From the NCBI GenBank assembly GCA_964448115.1, contig CAYUVA010000020.1:1-64000 (forward strand): a stretch of DNA of 64,000 nucleotides, in the 5' to 3' direction. The notes under the pieces were generated by a model. It did no database searches. It was not told the origin of the DNA and saw only the letters and a program-made list of their open reading frames with translations. Position 1 is the first letter of the stretch. Every line of letters begins with the position of its first letter. Both the position numbers and the translations under genes were made by a program. Positions 37,487-45,269 of the stretch are shown here, piece by piece. The stretch comes from an uncultured bacterium. GTDB lineage: Bacteria; CAYUVA01.

Positions 37487-37660
37487 TCATCGATTCCAAG
37501 GACAGCAAAAAGGTCATTAGCCCCTATTTTCCGCCAATTCAGTAATATCAATTCACCATATCGGTTGCAACTTTATAGCCCTTTTCATTTTATAAATGAA
37601 TGTGTATTATCTAGAACATAGAGGTAAAAAAAAAGAGTTTGAAACGGATTGGAAGGAAAA

Positions 37661-39805
37661 ATGGCTGCGATAAGACCCAGCAAAAAAGACTATGAGAAGG
37701 CAGATGAGCACCTCAAAGAGCATGGATTACTCGATGGTCGATACACCGACTTCGAGCAATTGGGCAGAGGTGGCTTCGGCATGGTTTTCAAGGCTCATGA
37801 TAATAAACTCAATCGAGATATCGCAGTAAAGTTCATCTTGGGGGGGCTGGATGAGAAGGTTCGAATGGAGATCGAGTCCCTGGCTCGTCTTACCGGAAAT
37901 CCTCACATAACCCACATTTTCGATGCCTTTACCATCGCACCGGGGGAGATCGGACTCGATCCCGCGACCTGGGGCGAAGACAGTTTTCGAGAACGATCTG
38001 ATCTCGAGGATATCTTGGAATCGAATGTAACTGTACTTACACTTGAGCTTGTGGTTGGTCAATCGATGAGAAGAAAATTGATAGCGAATAAAAATAATAA
38101 ATTACGACATGATCCCAGGAAAGCAGCGGAATATATGCTTCAGACCTGCATAGGCATGGATTGGGCTCATATAAATAAAATTATACATCGAGATATCAAG
38201 CCGGATAACTTACTTATTGCCATTTTCAAAGATAAATCCCAATTACAACCATACATATCCACGATATATACCGAGACTATCAAGATCACCGACTTCGGAT
38301 TGGCAAAACTCAATGTAACTCAGCTCGAATATCATTCGGTGTCTGGTACACTTCAATACATGGCTCCGGAGGTAATACTCAACGGGATCAGCAATGAACG
38401 CACTGATATTTATTCCATTGGCATTGTCTTGTATGAACTTCTGGAGAATAAGCGCCCTATCCAGAAAGCAGATGGTTATGAGGAGGCTATGTCGCGCGCG
38501 GGGAAAGAAATTTTTTTACCTGAATCATATCCACGAGCGTTACGAGATATAGTACACAAGGCTTGCCATCCAGATCCCGACCAGAGATATAGCACCTGTA
38601 TGGAAATGGCTGTAGAGCTTAAGGAGTTCATCAGGCCGAGAGCCCAAGTGCAGATCGATCTGCAATCGATACATAAGACCATCTTGAAGGAGATCCTGCT
38701 TAATCGATGGCAAAAGGGAAAGCTCACTGAAGAGGACCGCAGGGATATCCAAGAATTCAAGCATGAATACAACATAAAGACCGCTATCGCTCGCCAGATT
38801 GAGACAGAGGTAAAAAAGGATCTCAATATCGTCACCGAGATGTCCGCCTTTGATGAGATAACCAGTGAAGAGGCATCCCCGATTGGCAAGCAGATTGAGG
38901 GCGCATTGGATCGACTTAAAAGTATATCAGAAAAGGTACCGAGAAAAGCTCGGCAAAACTATAGGAGTCTAACCTTTTTAGCAATCTTAGTCGTCATTGC
39001 TAGTGTGATCGCTTATTGGATTTTACATAAAGATGTAAGCGCTATAAAAAGTGAAGATCGCTTCTCCAATATGCTTGGCATGGAGTTTGTTCTTATCCCA
39101 GAGGGTCGCTTCCAGATGGGATCTCCTGTCTCGGAACCGGGACGCACCGATGCAGAGATGCTGCACTATGTAGAGATCTCGAAGCCTTTCTATATGCAAA
39201 CCACCGAGGTAACTCAAAGACAATGGGCGGAGGTTATGAAGGAGAATCCGTCCAAGTTCAAGGATAATGACCGTCCTGTGGAAAATGTCTCCTGGGAGAA
39301 GGTGCAGCTTTTCATCGAAAATCTAAATAACATCGATACACAGCATAAATATAGCCTTCCAACCGAGGCACAATGGGAATATGCCTGCCGAGCACACACA
39401 TCATCACCGTTCAATCATGGCGCATGTAAAGACTATACAAGAGATAATATACTATGCCAGGTAAGTTGCCTAGAGGATTACGCCTGGTTCTGTGGTAATG
39501 CTGGAGAAAAGACTCATCCGGTAGCACAAAAGAAGCCAAATACATGGGGGCTTTATGACATGCACGGAAATGTCTGGGAATGGTGTTATGACTACAAGGA
39601 AGATTATCCGACAGAGGACCTAGTGATAGATCCGAGCGGACCCCAAAGCGGAACACACAGGGTGATACGGGGAGGGGCATTTTACAGCCATGCATTTGCA
39701 TGTCGGTCTGCTTATAGGTTCTTCATGCTTCCTGATGAGGCTATGGAAGGCGTGGGGTTCAGGTTGATATGCACCCTGGATAAGGCATCAACTCCAAGTC
39801 AATGA
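37661..39805 (+). CDS. Hanks-type Ser/Thr kinase with TM helix and extracellular FGE-sulfatase (SUMF1-like) domain
   Basis: GRGGFG, AVK, HRDIKPDN, DFG and YMAPE; one TM; TEVT, LPTEAQWEYACRA, GLYDMHGNVWEW, RGG and GFRL. Confidence 0.93.
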   Translation: MAAIRPSKKDYEKADEHLKEHGLLDGRYTDFEQLGRGGFGMVFKAHDNKLNRDIAVKFILGGLDEKVRMEIESLARLTGNPHITHIFDAFTIAPGEIGLDPATWGEDSFRERSDLEDILESNVTVLTLELVVGQSMRRKLIANKNNKLRHDPRKAAEYMLQTCIGMDWAHINKIIHRDIKPDNLLIAIFKDKSQLQPYISTIYTETIKITDFGLAKLNVTQLEYHSVSGTLQYMAPEVILNGISNERTDIYSIGIVLYELLENKRPIQKADGYEEAMSRAGKEIFLPESYPRALRDIVHKACHPDPDQRYSTCMEMAVELKEFIRPRAQVQIDLQSIHKTILKEILLNRWQKGKLTEEDRRDIQEFKHEYNIKTAIARQIETEVKKDLNIVTEMSAFDEITSEEASPIGKQIEGALDRLKSISEKVPRKARQNYRSLTFLAILVVIASVIAYWILHKDVSAIKSEDRFSNMLGMEFVLIPEGRFQMGSPVSEPGRTDAEMLHYVEISKPFYMQTTEVTQRQWAEVMKENPSKFKDNDRPVENVSWEKVQLFIENLNNIDTQHKYSLPTEAQWEYACRAHTSSPFNHGACKDYTRDNILCQVSCLEDYAWFCGNAGEKTHPVAQKKPNTWGLYDMHGNVWEWCYDYKEDYPTEDLVIDPSGPQSGTHRVIRGGAFYSHAFACRSAYRFFMLPDEAMEGVGFRLICTLDKASTPSQ

Positions 39806-39816
39806 CATCTGGCTAA

Positions 39817-41211
39817 TCATAAATGAGGCAAATCCTCAAGCTCTTTTTTCGCCTTTATGAACCGGGGGTCGAGTTTCAGCGCTTCAAGGAATTCATCTTT
39901 GGCTCTCGGATAGATTTTAGCTGCCTTATATACGATGCCAAGGTGATAGTGATGGAGAGGATTGCCAGCCTCTGCCTCGATAGCTTGTGCTCCAGCTACC
40001 ACTGCCTTTCTTAGGTTTCGGCCGGTCTTTGCCAGGACATAAGCAAGGTAGCTTTGATACAAGGGATTCTTGGGGTCATACTGTATGGCGACCTGGATAC
40101 CAGTAAGCGCGTGTGCATAGTCCTTGTTGTTTATCGCCTCCAAAGCCCTCTTGAACCTTAGCTTTGCCAGCGATTTAAGATCGATCCTTCCCGAGCTCTC
40201 TTCTTTTAGTTTTTTATGTCTCTTGAGGTTGGTTAGTGCATCCTTGGCTAGTAGTGATGACCTGTAAAGAAATCCGATCGCCTTGGCGATATTTTTATCT
40301 TGAAATTGTTTCCAGCCATTTAAACAGAGTATGTCTGCTTGCTTGATTCGTTTTTCATCATCGGCATTCAATTCTCTTCGTATCGATTCGGTATCCTCGT
40401 CGCGTAGAAATTTATTATAGATCTTTAGAACTCTAATGAAGTTATCTCTCCCCTTTTCCAATTCTCCATTTTTTAGATCTTTCATGGCTTTTATCGACCA
40501 GTTTAATATGTTAATAAGATACTCTATTGAGTTCTTGAAATCTGCCTTGAACTCCTCTTTAGTCTCGAAGAACTCCTTGGCAATGCGCTGCATATTCTTA
40601 TCTCGCTTTATTGGGGATGGCTCCTTCTTGGAGTTTTCTAAATCATTGATCTCATCGCTTTTGAACTTCTTGAATTCATGAGACTCGAACCTATCAAAGA
40701 TGTCCTTGTAGCTATCGCTGGAGGGTTCCGATTTTTTCTTTTCCTTCTGCATCTCGGTCCAGATGAATTCGTTGGTTTCGCCGGTGGGATTATGATACTT
40801 AGGTTCTATTCCAAGGTCTTTTAGGTCTTGTTCAAAGTTTTTGGTTGCACGAGAGATAGGTTCCTGGTCCTTAGAATCAGTTGGTGTCTCAATTCCTCCA
40901 TCGGTCAAATCAAGGTCTAAATATAGTTCTTCCTTGTCTTCGGGAGCTTCGCCTTCAGCAGCGGATTCGGCTTCCTCCATCTCCTTTTGCCACTTGAGGT
41001 ACTGGTCGTATCGCTTGCGGTTCTTATCGTCGATTAAGAACTGATAGGCATCATAGACCTCATAGAACTTTTGTCCAGGTACCGAGCCGGTCTTCATCTC
41101 CCTCTGGTACTTCATGGATAGACGCGTAAAAGCCTGGCGGATCTCCTTCTTAGTAGCTTTTGGGTTAACTCCAAGAATCTTGTAATAGTTTGGGTACCGG
41201 TTCTCAGGCAT
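39817..41211 (-). CDS. J-like domain (no HPD) + acidic linker + TPR protein
   Basis: NYYKILGV...EIRQAF...AYQFL...RKRYD; HPD position reads YQRE; C-terminal TPRs. Confidence 0.8.
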   Translation of the reverse strand: MPENRYPNYYKILGVNPKATKKEIRQAFTRLSMKYQREMKTGSVPGQKFYEVYDAYQFLIDDKNRKRYDQYLKWQKEMEEAESAAEGEAPEDKEELYLDLDLTDGGIETPTDSKDQEPISRATKNFEQDLKDLGIEPKYHNPTGETNEFIWTEMQKEKKKSEPSSDSYKDIFDRFESHEFKKFKSDEINDLENSKKEPSPIKRDKNMQRIAKEFFETKEEFKADFKNSIEYLINILNWSIKAMKDLKNGELEKGRDNFIRVLKIYNKFLRDEDTESIRRELNADDEKRIKQADILCLNGWKQFQDKNIAKAIGFLYRSSLLAKDALTNLKRHKKLKEESSGRIDLKSLAKLRFKRALEAINNKDYAHALTGIQVAIQYDPKNPLYQSYLAYVLAKTGRNLRKAVVAGAQAIEAEAGNPLHHYHLGIVYKAAKIYPRAKDEFLEALKLDPRFIKAKKELEDLPHL

Positions 41212-41212
41212 C

Positions 41213-43483
41213 TCACTTCACCTCTTTCTTGAGATGTTCTTTAATCTCGTTTATAAATTTGAATCCGCTCACCTGGCTCAGCAATGATTTATCCATTCTT
41301 TGAAATACGAGTCTGCTGGGCATCGGTTTCAGCATCGGGGGCATGATGGCGATGATATGTATATCTGCTGTTACCGTGTTATCCTTGAGGAGCTTGATCA
41401 CCTCATAACGATTATTCTCTCTTATCTGATCTAGAGATACCAGGAAAAGATCTGGCTGTCTGGCGAGCATCTGCTCTATAGCATGTCTCATATCGGAAGT
41501 TAGGCGCAAGGTGATCACCTTCTCCTCGCAGATCTCATTAAGTGTTTGTTTGATCTGATCATCCTCGGCGAGCAGTAGGATATCAAGGTCGCCAAAGTCC
41601 TTGAACAGTTCCACCAGCATCTCATCGAACTCTTGCCTGATTCTATCTAGATTATCCAAAAAGATATAGTTTTCCAGACCGAGCGAGAACTCGCCATCCT
41701 GGTCTTCGGTCAGGTTAATTAAGGAAGAAACGATTATCTCGCCTGATTTTTTATCAGCCAGCATCTTGGGGATGACCTCCCTAAGGTCGATATTTTTTGA
41801 AAGTATATTAAGGTAATATGAAGCCTCCTTGAAGTGATTGGCATATTCGAGCAACTTTTGTGGACTTTCAACCGAGATGGGGACCAGATCCAACTCAGTT
41901 GCCATTTTTTCCAATTGGAGGCGCACAATGGGATCGTCCTCGACCACAATGAACTTATTGCGGTATCTCTCCGAGTCGCCGGCTTCCATCCTGGCGAATT
42001 GCGGGTACTTGAGCATCGGTATCTCGAAGTAAAATTCGGTCCATTGCTCTGGCTCGCTATTTACCTTGAGCTGGGCGCGGTGCAAGCGAAGGATGTTATC
42101 CACCGTCTTTAGTGAAAGGGTCTGTCCTTGAGTGATGTAATCAATATCGCTGCTTAGGTTGAAGATATTCTGAAGCTCCTCATCGGTTAATGCCTCACCC
42201 TCATGTCTGATGCCCAGATAAACGAAATCATCCATATTATGCGCATTCACTTGGATTGTGCTCAAAGGCTTGCTGTATCTCAAGGCATTGCGCATCAGGT
42301 TAAACAGCACAAGTATGACTAGCTGTTCATCGCCGAGTATCGGTTTCAGTTCCTTGTCAATATTCGGTGTGAAGGTCAGATTGAGTTTCTCAGCCATCCC
42401 CTCTAAGCCCCTGATTGTGCGGTAGATCAGTTTCTCAAGATGGAGTATGTCCCAGTTGAGCTTAAACTTCTCCTTCAGGTTGGTCAGGGTGTTCATCATA
42501 TCGGTGTTGTATATCTCCAACTGATCAACCAAATTGGAGACTGGCAGATATATCTTCTTCCACAGATCAGGATCTTGTGAAAGTATGATATCAAAGGTGT
42601 TTTTTATATCATTTATCGCATCATTGCTTTGCTTGAGCAGGTTCTCCAAAAAGACATTAACCAGGACATTTTCCTCCTTTCGGAAGGTGTATTCCCTAAG
42701 CGCAATGGAGAAGCCTACCAGCTCTTCATCAGCCTCCACTCTCGACATGGTTACCTCGATCATGTAATTGCCATAAGGCACCTTGAATAATATCGGCTCC
42801 GTATAAGTCGGTGCAGAGATTATGTCCAGGTTTCTTTTCAGCTCCTTTTGAGCACTGAGCAGCTCAAGTTCGGTGATCTGTTTTCCTAACCAGTCCTCGG
42901 CATCTATTTTAAGCAGCTTTTCAGCCACCGAATTGATGTAGTTTATTCTTAGGCTCTTATCACTGACCATAATACCGATATTGAGGCTGTTTATGATGCT
43001 TTGGTACCAGCGGATATATTCAAGTAGCTTGCGGGAGTGCATGTGCAAGTCTTCGTTTCCCTGCTCCATAACTAGTTCGTTTGCCTGAGGTGCAGCCTGA
43101 CCGGAAAGCTTACTGTGGATGAAATCTATGGTAGCCTCCGGGTTGCTGCTGCTTTTAATTATTATCTGGTCTTGATCGTACTCCAATTGTTTAAAGATCC
43201 ATCTTAGGTCTTCCTCATCAAGAAAGTAGGTCAGATAGTATATTTTACTCTTGGCTAACTTTTCATTCTTGGAGATGAAATTATGTATGGTAAAGCCTTC
43301 GGTAATGGGGATGATAAGGTTAAGGATGCAGAAGTCTGGCTTGAAGTCTTGCAGCACCTGTATGGCATCGTATCCGCTGGAGACGGTCTGTACCTTATAC
43401 CCAGCCTTGCTGAGTTTCTGGTCAAGTTGCTCACAGAATCGCTTATCATCGTCTATGATTAGAACCTGTCTTTTCTGTATCAT
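41213..43483 (-). CDS. Degenerate hybrid sensor protein: REC-PAS-(HisKA)-HATPase-REC-REC pseudokinase
   Basis: Receiver, PAS and HATPase folds are recognisable (N-box NLMRNALRYS); phospho-acceptor residues and G-boxes are substituted. Confidence 0.82.
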   Translation of the reverse strand: MIQKRQVLIIDDDKRFCEQLDQKLSKAGYKVQTVSSGYDAIQVLQDFKPDFCILNLIIPITEGFTIHNFISKNEKLAKSKIYYLTYFLDEEDLRWIFKQLEYDQDQIIIKSSSNPEATIDFIHSKLSGQAAPQANELVMEQGNEDLHMHSRKLLEYIRWYQSIINSLNIGIMVSDKSLRINYINSVAEKLLKIDAEDWLGKQITELELLSAQKELKRNLDIISAPTYTEPILFKVPYGNYMIEVTMSRVEADEELVGFSIALREYTFRKEENVLVNVFLENLLKQSNDAINDIKNTFDIILSQDPDLWKKIYLPVSNLVDQLEIYNTDMMNTLTNLKEKFKLNWDILHLEKLIYRTIRGLEGMAEKLNLTFTPNIDKELKPILGDEQLVILVLFNLMRNALRYSKPLSTIQVNAHNMDDFVYLGIRHEGEALTDEELQNIFNLSSDIDYITQGQTLSLKTVDNILRLHRAQLKVNSEPEQWTEFYFEIPMLKYPQFARMEAGDSERYRNKFIVVEDDPIVRLQLEKMATELDLVPISVESPQKLLEYANHFKEASYYLNILSKNIDLREVIPKMLADKKSGEIIVSSLINLTEDQDGEFSLGLENYIFLDNLDRIRQEFDEMLVELFKDFGDLDILLLAEDDQIKQTLNEICEEKVITLRLTSDMRHAIEQMLARQPDLFLVSLDQIRENNRYEVIKLLKDNTVTADIHIIAIMPPMLKPMPSRLVFQRMDKSLLSQVSGFKFINEIKEHLKKEVK

Positions 43484-43521
43484 ATTAGCTCCTGCCTTCC
43501 TTACAATCCGTCCGAGTGTCT

Positions 43522-43561
43522 AGTTCCCTTATATATAAATATATATAATGAAGGTTGTCAA
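43522..43561 (-). promoter_or_regulatory. Putative sigma70 promoter of the pseudokinase operon
   Basis: Minus-strand TTGACA followed ~17 bp later by an AT-rich -10-like tract within the near-palindrome TTATATATAAATATATATAA. Confidence 0.4.
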
Positions 43562-43709
43562 TTATTTATATTTCTCTTTCCAACCTGCCTTGGAAGCGTT
43601 TTCTTGCTTCTTCGAGTAATAGGATATTATAAACGCATATCTTTGTCAAAGTCATATCGCCTTCTTTTATATATAGTTATCCCATGGAGACATTTATGTA
43701 AGATATTTT

Positions 43710-45269
43710 TTATCGTCGCTCTATCTCCCATTGCACCAACCTGTCAGCCTCCAGCCTGATTCGGAGAATCTGCTTATCGGTGAAGATCTCCAAGATCTTA
43801 TAACCATCATGCTCGGAAAGTTCCTGAGGTAGAGTGAATATTTGTTGTATCTCCTCAAGGGTCGGTTTCATCTCAAGGATATCGGTCTGATAGGTATTAA
43901 AATCTGCGCTCCACTCCGAGAAGGCATAGCGAACTTTGCCATCCTTAAGCAGAAATACTATCAGGATAAAAATGTCCTCAAAGACCCATTTTTGGTCGAA
44001 CAAGGTTATCCGAGGATTGTCATAGTAGGAATATTTCTTATCCGGCTCGCCGGCGAAGTATGCTAGTTGCTGCTCGGTCAATCTCAGCCTCATTGGTATC
44101 TTGAAATCGAAATTGACAATGTCTCCTGGATATCGAATAAATAAAGGTTGTCTGTCCAGATAGAAAAGCTTCACAATAGTATCTCTGACCTTGAATCGAT
44201 AAAGATAAAAGACAGCTTCATCGGTGGAGATCTCCTTTATTACGCTTTTCTCCAGTGGCTCATCGAAGATGTCCTCGAGCACAGATATGAAGTCTATATC
44301 GCTTGGATCATGGATCTTGGCATTCAAGGGATCTATATAACCATCAAAACGATCGTCAAGCATATCGTTTTGGGTTATGTAATGCATTATATTCAAGGTT
44401 ATCAGGCAATATCCTAGCAGGTTTGGGTGCCCATCCCAGAACATGACCAGATCGCGATATTGGTCAAAGAACAGCCCAAACAGTGGGCGATTATCAATAA
44501 CGGTCAGGTTGCTATCCATCAATGCCCTGTGTAGGGGGATCAGTTGATTGAACTCCCTAGTAGGCGGATATGTTAAAAAAAGAACTTGGAAACCATTTGT
44601 AATCCCCAACTCATTCATCTTGCCAAAGTCATACCTAGCTACGCGATACTGCGCTTCATCGCTGGTGAGCAGCGTCTTGTATTCGCTATGACTCCACTCT
44701 CGGGTGAACCACTGTATATCATCTCGGTACCTGAGGTACTTCAATGCCCTGAAGATCCTGAGATTTTCAATCACCGACTGGATCTTTACAAAGATCCAGT
44801 GCTCCAGCCTTTTAGGCGGATAGAGCTTGAATAAGTTGGAGTTATAGAAGTTATGGATATTATTTTTACCTGCAAAAACTATGACCAGCTCTGGCACCTG
44901 GATATCAACCTTCTGCTTGAGTCTTCTCAACACCTGGCTCGAATTCCAAGAGGGCATGCCGAAGTTCTTGATGATATACTTTCTCCCCGTGGTGCTGTAC
45001 TTGTTCAGCAGATTGGATAGTTGTTCAGCTATGCTCATTCCTCGCGGCGCACCCATCCCATAGGCGTGCGAATCCCCCAGCAAGTAGATAAGATACTCCC
45101 CTTGCCGCTTCCTTTGTGCCCTCGATTCCGGAAGCCTGCTTATATAGAAAAAGGCGAGAAAACGAAGCGAAAGCTCACAAAGAACAAGCAGATACAGCGT
45201 AAACAACCCTATCTTGAGCAATCTGCGCAGAATGCCCTTTTTCTTCGTTTTATCCCTAGCTGTCATCAA
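43710..45269 (-). CDS. Membrane-anchored SGNH/GDSL hydrolase-family protein with extra C-terminal domain
   Basis: N-terminal TM; GDS (LGDSHAYG), G-x-N (GKNN) and DGHPN blocks. Confidence 0.8.
   Translation of the reverse strand: MMTARDKTKKKGILRRLLKIGLFTLYLLVLCELSLRFLAFFYISRLPESRAQRKRQGEYLIYLLGDSHAYGMGAPRGMSIAEQLSNLLNKYSTTGRKYIIKNFGMPSWNSSQVLRRLKQKVDIQVPELVIVFAGKNNIHNFYNSNLFKLYPPKRLEHWIFVKIQSVIENLRIFRALKYLRYRDDIQWFTREWSHSEYKTLLTSDEAQYRVARYDFGKMNELGITNGFQVLFLTYPPTREFNQLIPLHRALMDSNLTVIDNRPLFGLFFDQYRDLVMFWDGHPNLLGYCLITLNIMHYITQNDMLDDRFDGYIDPLNAKIHDPSDIDFISVLEDIFDEPLEKSVIKEISTDEAVFYLYRFKVRDTIVKLFYLDRQPLFIRYPGDIVNFDFKIPMRLRLTEQQLAYFAGEPDKKYSYYDNPRITLFDQKWVFEDIFILIVFLLKDGKVRYAFSEWSADFNTYQTDILEMKPTLEEIQQIFTLPQELSEHDGYKILEIFTDKQILRIRLEADRLVQWEIERR

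Follow-up and report, generated by a model that had tools for sequence, protein, structure and literature searches.

Histidine kinases of the HisKA type need an H-box histidine and a G1/G2 ATP lid, receiver (REC) domains need an aspartate, and J domains need the HPD motif in order to stimulate Hsp70. Here we describe two adjacent genes from an uncultured bacterium whose products carry none of these signatures at the expected positions. They lie in a 64,000-nucleotide (nt) window (the whole stretch of DNA that was analysed, positions 1 to 64,000 of contig CAYUVA010000020.1, assembly GCA_964448115.1). The first, at 41213..43483 on the minus strand, encodes P0001, a degenerate hybrid histidine kinase of 756 amino acids (aa) with the layout REC-PAS-DHp-CA-REC-REC, as read from the translated open reading frame (ORF), Pfam, and an AlphaFold2 model searched with Foldseek. 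The second, at 39817..41211 on the same strand, encodes P0002, a 464-aa protein made of a J-like domain, a charged linker and C-terminal TPRs (ORF, Pfam and reading of the gene junction). Pseudo-kinases, pseudo-receivers and J-like proteins have all been described before. Pseudo-receivers are estimated to make up about 6% of bacterial receivers, with the aspartate missing in 2.0% of PF00072 domains and the histidine in 0.9% of HisKA domains, and both pseudo-receivers and pseudo-kinases are described as working without phosphotransfer (PMC12632262).

Several described proteins share parts of this arrangement. DivL of Caulobacter (PDB 4q20) likewise has PAS, DHp and CA domains with the phospho-histidine replaced, and ranked 35th (E = 8e-13) among the fold matches to our P0001 model. 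It has a tyrosine at the histidine site and no receiver domains, whereas P0001 has a lysine at that site, contains three REC-like domains that lack the aspartate, and is encoded next to a J-like gene. DivL is described as a repurposed kinase that acts through protein contacts (PMC4211667). ShkA, also from Caulobacter (PDB 6qrj; fold-match rank 23), resembles P0001 in having a DHp-CA core, a pseudo-receiver and a second receiver, and cyclic di-GMP (c-di-GMP) is reported to bind its central pseudo-receiver (PMC7010744); unlike P0001, which lacks the histidine, G1, G2 and three aspartates, ShkA has kinase activity and ends in a true receiver. The FrzS-type pseudo-receiver, a receiver fold without the aspartate, is described as working by interaction (PMC1974792; PMC12632262), and P0001 differs from it in joining three aspartate-less domains to a dead kinase core in one protein.

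P0002, in turn, resembles the uncharacterised J-TPR and PATAN-J-TPR proteins, which combine a J domain with C-terminal TPRs and are homologous to it at both ends; it departs from them in reading QRE in place of HPD, in an insertion of about 250 aa, and in having a PAS/histidine kinase (HK)-like gene upstream. In eukaryotes, P58IPK (DNAJC3) combines TPRs with a J domain and inhibits protein kinases by binding them, and Pam16, whose J fold lacks the HPD, has a regulatory role; both differ from P0002 in domain order, and the comparison with them covers the shared domains. A bacterial case in which a J-domain co-chaperone of DnaK acts on a phosphorelay through protein contacts is DjlA, whose over-expression is reported to trigger the Rcs system of E. 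coli by weakening the IgaA-RcsD interaction (PMC11709261); unlike P0002, DjlA is membrane-anchored, has a working J domain and lacks TPRs, and its gene does not neighbour that of its target. Each part of the locus described here is thus of a known kind, and what is new, as far as our searches reach, is the fully stripped combination and its threefold operonic pairing with a J-TPR gene. A limited literature search on J-TPR/kinase pairing found no such pair.

An initial sequence-only reading of the stretch had proposed that the phosphotransfer and ATP-binding residues of P0001 were replaced, and every one of these substitutions was borne out by alignment. We used a five-protein alignment, A3, comprising P0001, two degenerate relatives (P0015 and P0025, described below) and two canonical hybrid kinases (P0036 and P0095). 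In REC1 (residues 7-112; 43148..43465), which matches Pfam Response_reg at 4e-17 (62.8 bits, against a cut-off of 30.2 for the receiver fold), N55 (codon 43319-43321) lies, by HMMER alignment, opposite the phospho-aspartate (PDLIVLD) of a response regulator from T. maritima (PDB 3dge_C), and the same column holds an aspartate in 4/4 aligned relatives in A3. Four of this domain's five active-site residues are kept, namely the DD pair (D12/D13), T85 and K110, which places it within the published definition of an aspartate-less pseudo-receiver, with DD, T and K present and D changed to N (PMC12632262). In the DHp-like helical hairpin (residues 268-337; 42473..42682), assigned from two long helices in the model and from A3, K284 (codon 42632-42634) occupies the H-box histidine column of the canonical VSHE. 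There is no histidine anywhere in residues 268-337, and no HisKA hidden Markov model match to this stretch was found even at E <= 10.

The CA domain (HATPase_c-like, residues 344-492; 42008..42454) was recognised by Pfam (1.7e-12 over residues 384-490), by alignments to HK853, ThkA and SrrB, and by motif counts. Here the G1 box reads HEGEA (427-431) opposite the DNGIG of HK853, and the G2 box reads GQTLSL (453-458) opposite GTGLGL, while the N-box is kept (NLMRNA; N395 and N399) in alignment with HK853 and the canonical relatives. In A3, the REC2-like domain (residues 509-630; 41594..41959) has N559 in the phospho-aspartate column and lacks the conserved lysine, and the REC3-like domain (residues 633-756; 41216..41587) has S683 in the phospho-aspartate column and M714 in the threonine column. 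Both P0036 and P0095 carry D, H, D and D where P0001 has N55, K284, N559 and S683. Among 132 canonical kinase cores, the H-box pattern [ST]H[ED] occurs in 128, DxGxG in 131 and the G2 pattern in 130; P0001 has none of the three. Compared with these family signatures, P0001 thus retains the HATPase_c fold and N-box and lacks the phospho-histidine, G1/G2 and phospho-aspartates. The substitutions are real, with the qualification that the N-box is still present, as is most of the REC1 pocket. Since neither PAS nor TPR has a catalytic role, the accompanying statement that the operon is built entirely from dead domains was too strong. Given the residues that such proteins need, P0001 would neither autophosphorylate nor accept phosphate at the usual sites, and P0002 would be unable to activate DnaK.

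A Pfam scan of the whole of P0001 detected no HisKA domain and no receiver beyond REC1; the PAS domain (residues 160-259; 42707..43006) was matched at 1.5e-8 and is 23-33% identical (with its linker) among P0001, P0015 and P0025. The AlphaFold2 model, built from a five-sequence alignment with a mean predicted local distance difference test score (pLDDT) of 67.8, contains a REC, a PAS, two long helices, an alpha/beta domain at residues 344-490 and two (beta-alpha)5 units. Foldseek matched it to PAS-DHp-CA kinases, including WalK, VicK (4i5s), YF1 (4gcz), ThkA (3a0r), ShkA (6qrj) and DivL (4q20), at E values from 1e-22 to 1e-12. When the C-terminal 262 residues were modelled alone, at low confidence (pLDDT 57.3), PleD, with its two receivers in tandem, was the best Foldseek match (E = 1.5e-4), and DivK was also found. 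The assignment of REC2 draws on A3, the (beta-alpha)5 pattern and the PleD match, and that of REC3 on A3, the models and a PDE8A_N match (E = 0.011).

The downstream gene had been read as starting 1 nt after the P0001 stop and as encoding a J-like domain with the HPD replaced, followed by TPRs, and ORFs, Pfam and alignments agree on each of these points. The J-like domain (residues 8-69; 41005..41190) matches Pfam DnaJ at 2e-13 (50.6 bits against a cut-off of 27.8, profile positions 1-63), and Q36-R37-E38 (41098-41106) align with the HPD of P0171, P0172, P0173 and P0178, one of which is a paralogue and three of which are relatives from outside this genome. The TPR region (about residues 338-460; 39832..40200; Pfam TPR at about 354-451) is homologous to the TPR part of 221-aa paralogues (alignments A5 and A6), and a J-TPR family profile matches P0002 at both ends, over profile positions 4-93 and 66-209. 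Between the two lies the charged linker or insertion of about 250 aa, which the 221-aa paralogues lack. Because the HPD is lost, P0002 would not be able to switch on DnaK.

Both genes have the appearance of intact coding sequences, as had been claimed. Neither frame contains an internal stop (the off-frames hold 56-63 per 756 codons and 26-38 per 464), the GC content at third codon positions (GC3) is 0.575 for P0001 and 0.506 for P0002 against a gene GC of 0.44, and their codon usage is typical, falling at the 62nd and 23rd percentile, respectively, of 1766 long ORFs of the genome. The junction reads TGA-G-ATG; a Shine-Dalgarno-like AGGAG precedes the P0001 start, and GAGGTG, within the end of P0001, precedes that of P0002, so that the two proteins are, judging from this arrangement, made together by translational coupling. 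Upstream, an AT-rich intergenic region of 226 nt (43484..43709, minus strand) is the likely operon promoter, with a ribosome-binding site and sigma-70-like hexamers (TTGACA-17-TATCCT and ATGACT-18-TATAAT) that are consensus matches only. Stop-free frames, GC3, codon usage, start signals and the degeneracy shared with relatives are indirect signs that favour maintained genes.

The genome holds three PAS/HK-like genes, each with a J-TPR gene within 7 nt downstream. One of the other two pairs (contig C42, L009:7335-10312) consists of P0015 (772 aa) and P0016 (221 aa), which overlap by 7 nt. P0015 is a full-length paralogue of P0001 (E = 5e-25 in a search of its own genome) that has two Pfam REC stretches; it keeps the aspartate in REC1 and REC3, has an asparagine in REC2 like P0001 and a tyrosine in the histidine column, and has lost the N-box. 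Its partner P0016 has a J-like domain that reads HKK, plus TPRs. In the remaining pair (contig C27, L010:6514-8241), P0021 (351 aa) is followed after a 6-nt gap by P0171 (221 aa), in which the HPD is intact. P0021 has no receiver domains and aligns collinearly to P0001 across PAS-DHp-CA (BLASTP E = 0.003). Its profile match to the P0001/P0015 alignment was weak (7% probability in hhalign), so that its membership rests mainly on the collinear alignment, a shared PLS motif (see below) and gene context. As the same pairing recurs three times in one genome, we infer that the two kinds of genes are functionally linked, and the gene pair in the window is probably a working non-enzymatic signalling pair.

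Two full Hsp70 genes are present in this genome. Its ORFs with J or J-like domains number 13, of which 7 lack the HPD, an unusually large set for 4 Mb; among the 13 are C6_97872_98480, C2_39263_42679, C18_17738_19585, C23_26824_28356 and C27_52427_53926. The J-TPR profile additionally matches a 652-aa frame on contig C1.

Elsewhere, J-TPR proteins nearly always keep the HPD. The profile found full-length metagenome relatives of 231-240 aa, all with HPD (which all three relatives recovered by protein search keep), and it matched 46/101 genomes from the phylum of one relative and 43/400 other genomes of a broad bacterial sample. Across the 59 J-TPR loci that were read, the HPD is kept in 58 (30/30 in the phylum sample and 28/29 in the broad sample), and its loss is therefore best seen as a derived state of the two pairs with a REC-bearing kinase-like gene. 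In 29/30 loci of the phylum sample, the J domain lies at residue 270-390 within a frame of 480-620 aa, and 4/4 scanned proteins are DUF4388(PATAN)-J-TPR fusions; in loci L120-L148 (phylum of G041), the J-TPR part usually forms the C-terminal half and DUF4388 (PATAN) the N-terminal one. The PATAN-J-TPR proteins thus look like a class of uncharacterised co-chaperones that is widespread and coupled to a signalling domain. Twelve stand-alone J-TPR genes of the broad sample have as upstream neighbour a TPR gene of about 320 aa (9), a permease (2) or a PMT-like gene (1); in loci L150-L157 and L159, the J-TPR gene directly follows, and often overlaps, the all-TPR gene of about 320 aa, forming another conserved pair. 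At a Thermodesulfovibrionia locus with a close relative of P0172, the upstream ORF (249 aa) has no family match and no kinase likeness. In a metagenome-assembled genome of the same group (L027:5001-5954), a J-TPR frame continues into an inositol monophosphatase-like fragment, which is probably a frameshift or an assembly join.

To place P0001, we searched 1.84 billion protein representatives exhaustively with a profile. Full-length matches were limited to P0001 and the cluster of P0015, followed by P0025, a protein of 748 aa in which Pfam sees REC and PAS only. P0025 keeps the H-box histidine and the aspartates of REC1 and REC3 and has an asparagine in REC2, while its N-box, G1 and G2 are lost. 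Its gene context yielded nothing in the metagenome scan and an unrelated REC match only in the genome scan; the genome scan with the three-protein alignment returned generic REC matches only, a word-based search with P0016 returned the protein itself plus one weak match, and the 40 genomes nearest to the source genome, among those searched, are related at the domain level only. Canonical kinases of the same six-domain layout do exist: P0036 (788 aa) and P0095 (771 aa) each have HisKA, HATPase_c and three Pfam receiver stretches, and since they share the layout and a similar length, P0001 derives from an ordinary cytoplasmic hybrid kinase.

Two features unite the degenerate proteins. The motif PLS[TE][ILV], just after the N-box position (KPLSTIQV at 405-412 in P0001), is found in 4/4 of them and in 0/132 canonical cores, and a quick maximum-likelihood tree placed the four on one side of a branch with a Shimodaira-Hasegawa-like approximate likelihood ratio (SH-aLRT) support of 97. 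The tree used 50 of 136 cores (the four degenerate proteins, P0036, P0095 and one in three of the others). The shared motif and the grouping indicate that the degenerate state is old, yet the ORFs are intact. Identity among P0001, P0015 and P0025 is 27-37% in REC1, 23-33% in linker plus PAS, 7-16% in DHp, 18-22% in CA and 12-20% in REC2/REC3, as compared with 34% in DHp and 40% in CA between the canonical P0036 and P0095, which indicates that constraint has shifted away from the catalytic core and onto the input end; our domain list gives the linker helix and PAS as the best-conserved part of the degenerate family. Whether relatives keep the catalytic residues had been raised by the sequence-only reading, and the answer is divided: P0015 and P0025 keep the aspartates of REC1 and REC3, and P0025 also the histidine, but they are partly degenerate themselves. 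Since the relatives keep some sites, the family is partly degenerate and P0001 is its most stripped member.

A phosphorylation-independent role would be the natural reading of these results. In the explanation that we propose, P0001 descends from a REC-PAS-HisKA-HATPase-REC-REC kinase, has lost every phospho-acceptor site and would no longer autophosphorylate; its REC1 and PAS would form the input part still under constraint, and the DHp/CA/REC-like remainder might serve as a dimeric scaffold. P0002 stems from the widespread small J-TPR co-chaperones of DnaK, having lost the HPD while keeping the J fold and the peptide-binding TPR part, and P0001 and P0002 most likely bind each other. In an ancestral form such as P0021 plus P0171, with its HPD intact, the PAS/HK-like protein would give the J-TPR protein a target, or make DnaK recruitment dependent on a signal. 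In the window pair the link to DnaK would be cut, leaving a DnaK-independent (insulated) adaptor or a competitor of the active paralogues. From the missing residues we infer that ATP binding by P0001 and DnaK stimulation by P0002 are probably lost. Taken as a whole, with the pair as a working non-enzymatic signalling module, we give this explanation an even chance.

A number of observations weigh against it. Scanned alone, REC2 and REC3 gave weak Response_reg matches (13 and 16 bits, E = 0.12 and 0.013), and their fold assignments depend on low-confidence models. The DHp, CA, REC2 and REC3 regions have diverged so far (7-22% identity) that part of P0001 may be drifting, and the retained N-box leaves some nucleotide binding possible. 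P0025, the sole degenerate relative from outside, sits on a Logan contig of 3770 bp, and the grouping in the tree joins very long branches and may be an artefact of their attraction. Searches for an orthologue of P0001 found none, the word-based search returning only the protein itself and the exhaustive profile search yielding no orthologue. The linkage of the two genes, which the sequence-only reading had asked to see elsewhere, is present three times in this genome and was not found outside it: a PAS or kinase-like gene lies upstream of J-TPR in 0/12 stand-alone loci, and a J-domain ORF was seen at 1/80 loci of canonical P0095 relatives, where it is DnaJ-sized and on the other strand. As far as seen in these genomes, the pairing of a PAS/HK-like with a J-TPR gene appears to be specific to this lineage.

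The surviving parts of the active sites allow for a different function, in which P0001 binds a small molecule or acts as a decoy, its CA or pseudo-receiver binding a nucleotide or its REC1 competing for the kinase of P0015. The kept N-box and the DD, T85 and K110 of REC1 speak for this; so does ShkA, whose full-length structure is among the fold matches and whose pseudo-receiver is reported to bind c-di-GMP (PMC7010744), and, as P0015 keeps the REC1 and REC3 aspartates and two Pfam REC stretches, a cognate kinase probably exists. However, the G1 aspartate that contacts adenine is a histidine in P0001, G2 is degenerate, and no ligand-binding motif was identified in the protein; for a decoy, the REC1 domains of P0001 and P0015 are only 27% identical, which is low for a common partner kinase. 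We regard such a function as unlikely. The pair could instead be a redundant duplicate on its way to loss, in which the catalytic residues went first and stops are yet to come. It is indeed the most stripped of the three paralogous pairs, its DHp, CA, REC2 and REC3 are very poorly conserved, no orthologue was found, and P0002 carries its charged insertion of about 250 aa that the 221-aa paralogues do not have. Set against this are 756 and 464 stop-free codons where off-frames have about 8% stops, gene-like GC3 and codon usage, intact ribosome-binding sites and coupled junction, and a degenerate state common to relatives of about 20% identity, which must thus have long persisted. Decay is in our view quite improbable.

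The sequence-only reading had proposed a scaffold or polarity module, perhaps under the control of the convergent Ser/Thr kinase. On that view its state would depend on phosphorylation by the product of the gene at 37649-39805, whose stop is 11 nt from that of P0002, and the serine at the former aspartate site, S683, would suit such control. Its convergent orientation means that the kinase gene is not co-transcribed with the pair, though, and 0/18 kinase-like ORFs of the genome lie on contigs of the other two pairs. Nothing points to polar localisation, nor does any of our results bear on a polarity role, and we consider this possibility very improbable. Of the earlier interpretation, then, the substitutions, the intact coupled ORFs and the linkage of the two genes held up, while Ser/Thr control and polarity did not. 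The preferred reading remains that of a non-enzymatic signalling pair.

The neighbouring genes and the available reads add some observations of their own. The convergent gene downstream (37649-39805, plus strand) has Pfam Pkinase and FGE-sulfatase matches, its Ser/Thr kinase being joined through a predicted membrane stretch to the FGE-sulfatase (formylglycine-generating-enzyme-like) domain. Upstream, the gene at 43710-45269 (minus strand) encodes a GDSL/SGNH esterase-like protein with weak similarity to the Leptospira LA_2486 family and a C-terminal part of about 200 aa without any family match. Read contigs from what is probably the source sample match the window without any difference. A run from another study, labelled as a hydrothermal vent metagenome, contains an identical piece of 167 nt (40119-40285) and a piece of 196 nt (43008-43203) with 11 differences, 5 of which are listed, 3 of these at third codon positions; the two pieces hint at a close relative elsewhere and fall far short of what testing selection or naming a habitat would need. 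In run X1, a single contig joins 41261 to 42869, skipping 1607 nt, with only 24 matching letters on the shorter side and dissimilar sequence beyond; it most likely comes from another organism and matches by chance.

The degenerate proteins and their relatives form a natural series, from the canonical kinases through P0025 (a dead ATP site, with the histidine and two aspartates) and P0015 (no histidine, two aspartates) to P0001 (none), and the J-TPR partners in this genome also range from an intact HPD to none, so that the order of loss is visible and matched active and inactive pairs are at hand for experiment, the practical limit being a lineage that has hardly been sampled and never cultured. 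Should the paired products indeed bind each other, two-component-type sensors would be connected with Hsp70 targeting. A broader idea, which we consider distinctly unlikely on present evidence, is that PAS/kinase-like proteins act as signal-sensing selector subunits of J-TPR co-chaperones, deciding where DnaK goes, with the HPD-less pairs as DnaK-blind antagonists or insulated branches. If true, these pairs, together with the PATAN-J-TPR fusions, would represent a class of signal-transduction-coupled Hsp70 targeting, in which an environmental or metabolic signal steers DnaK.

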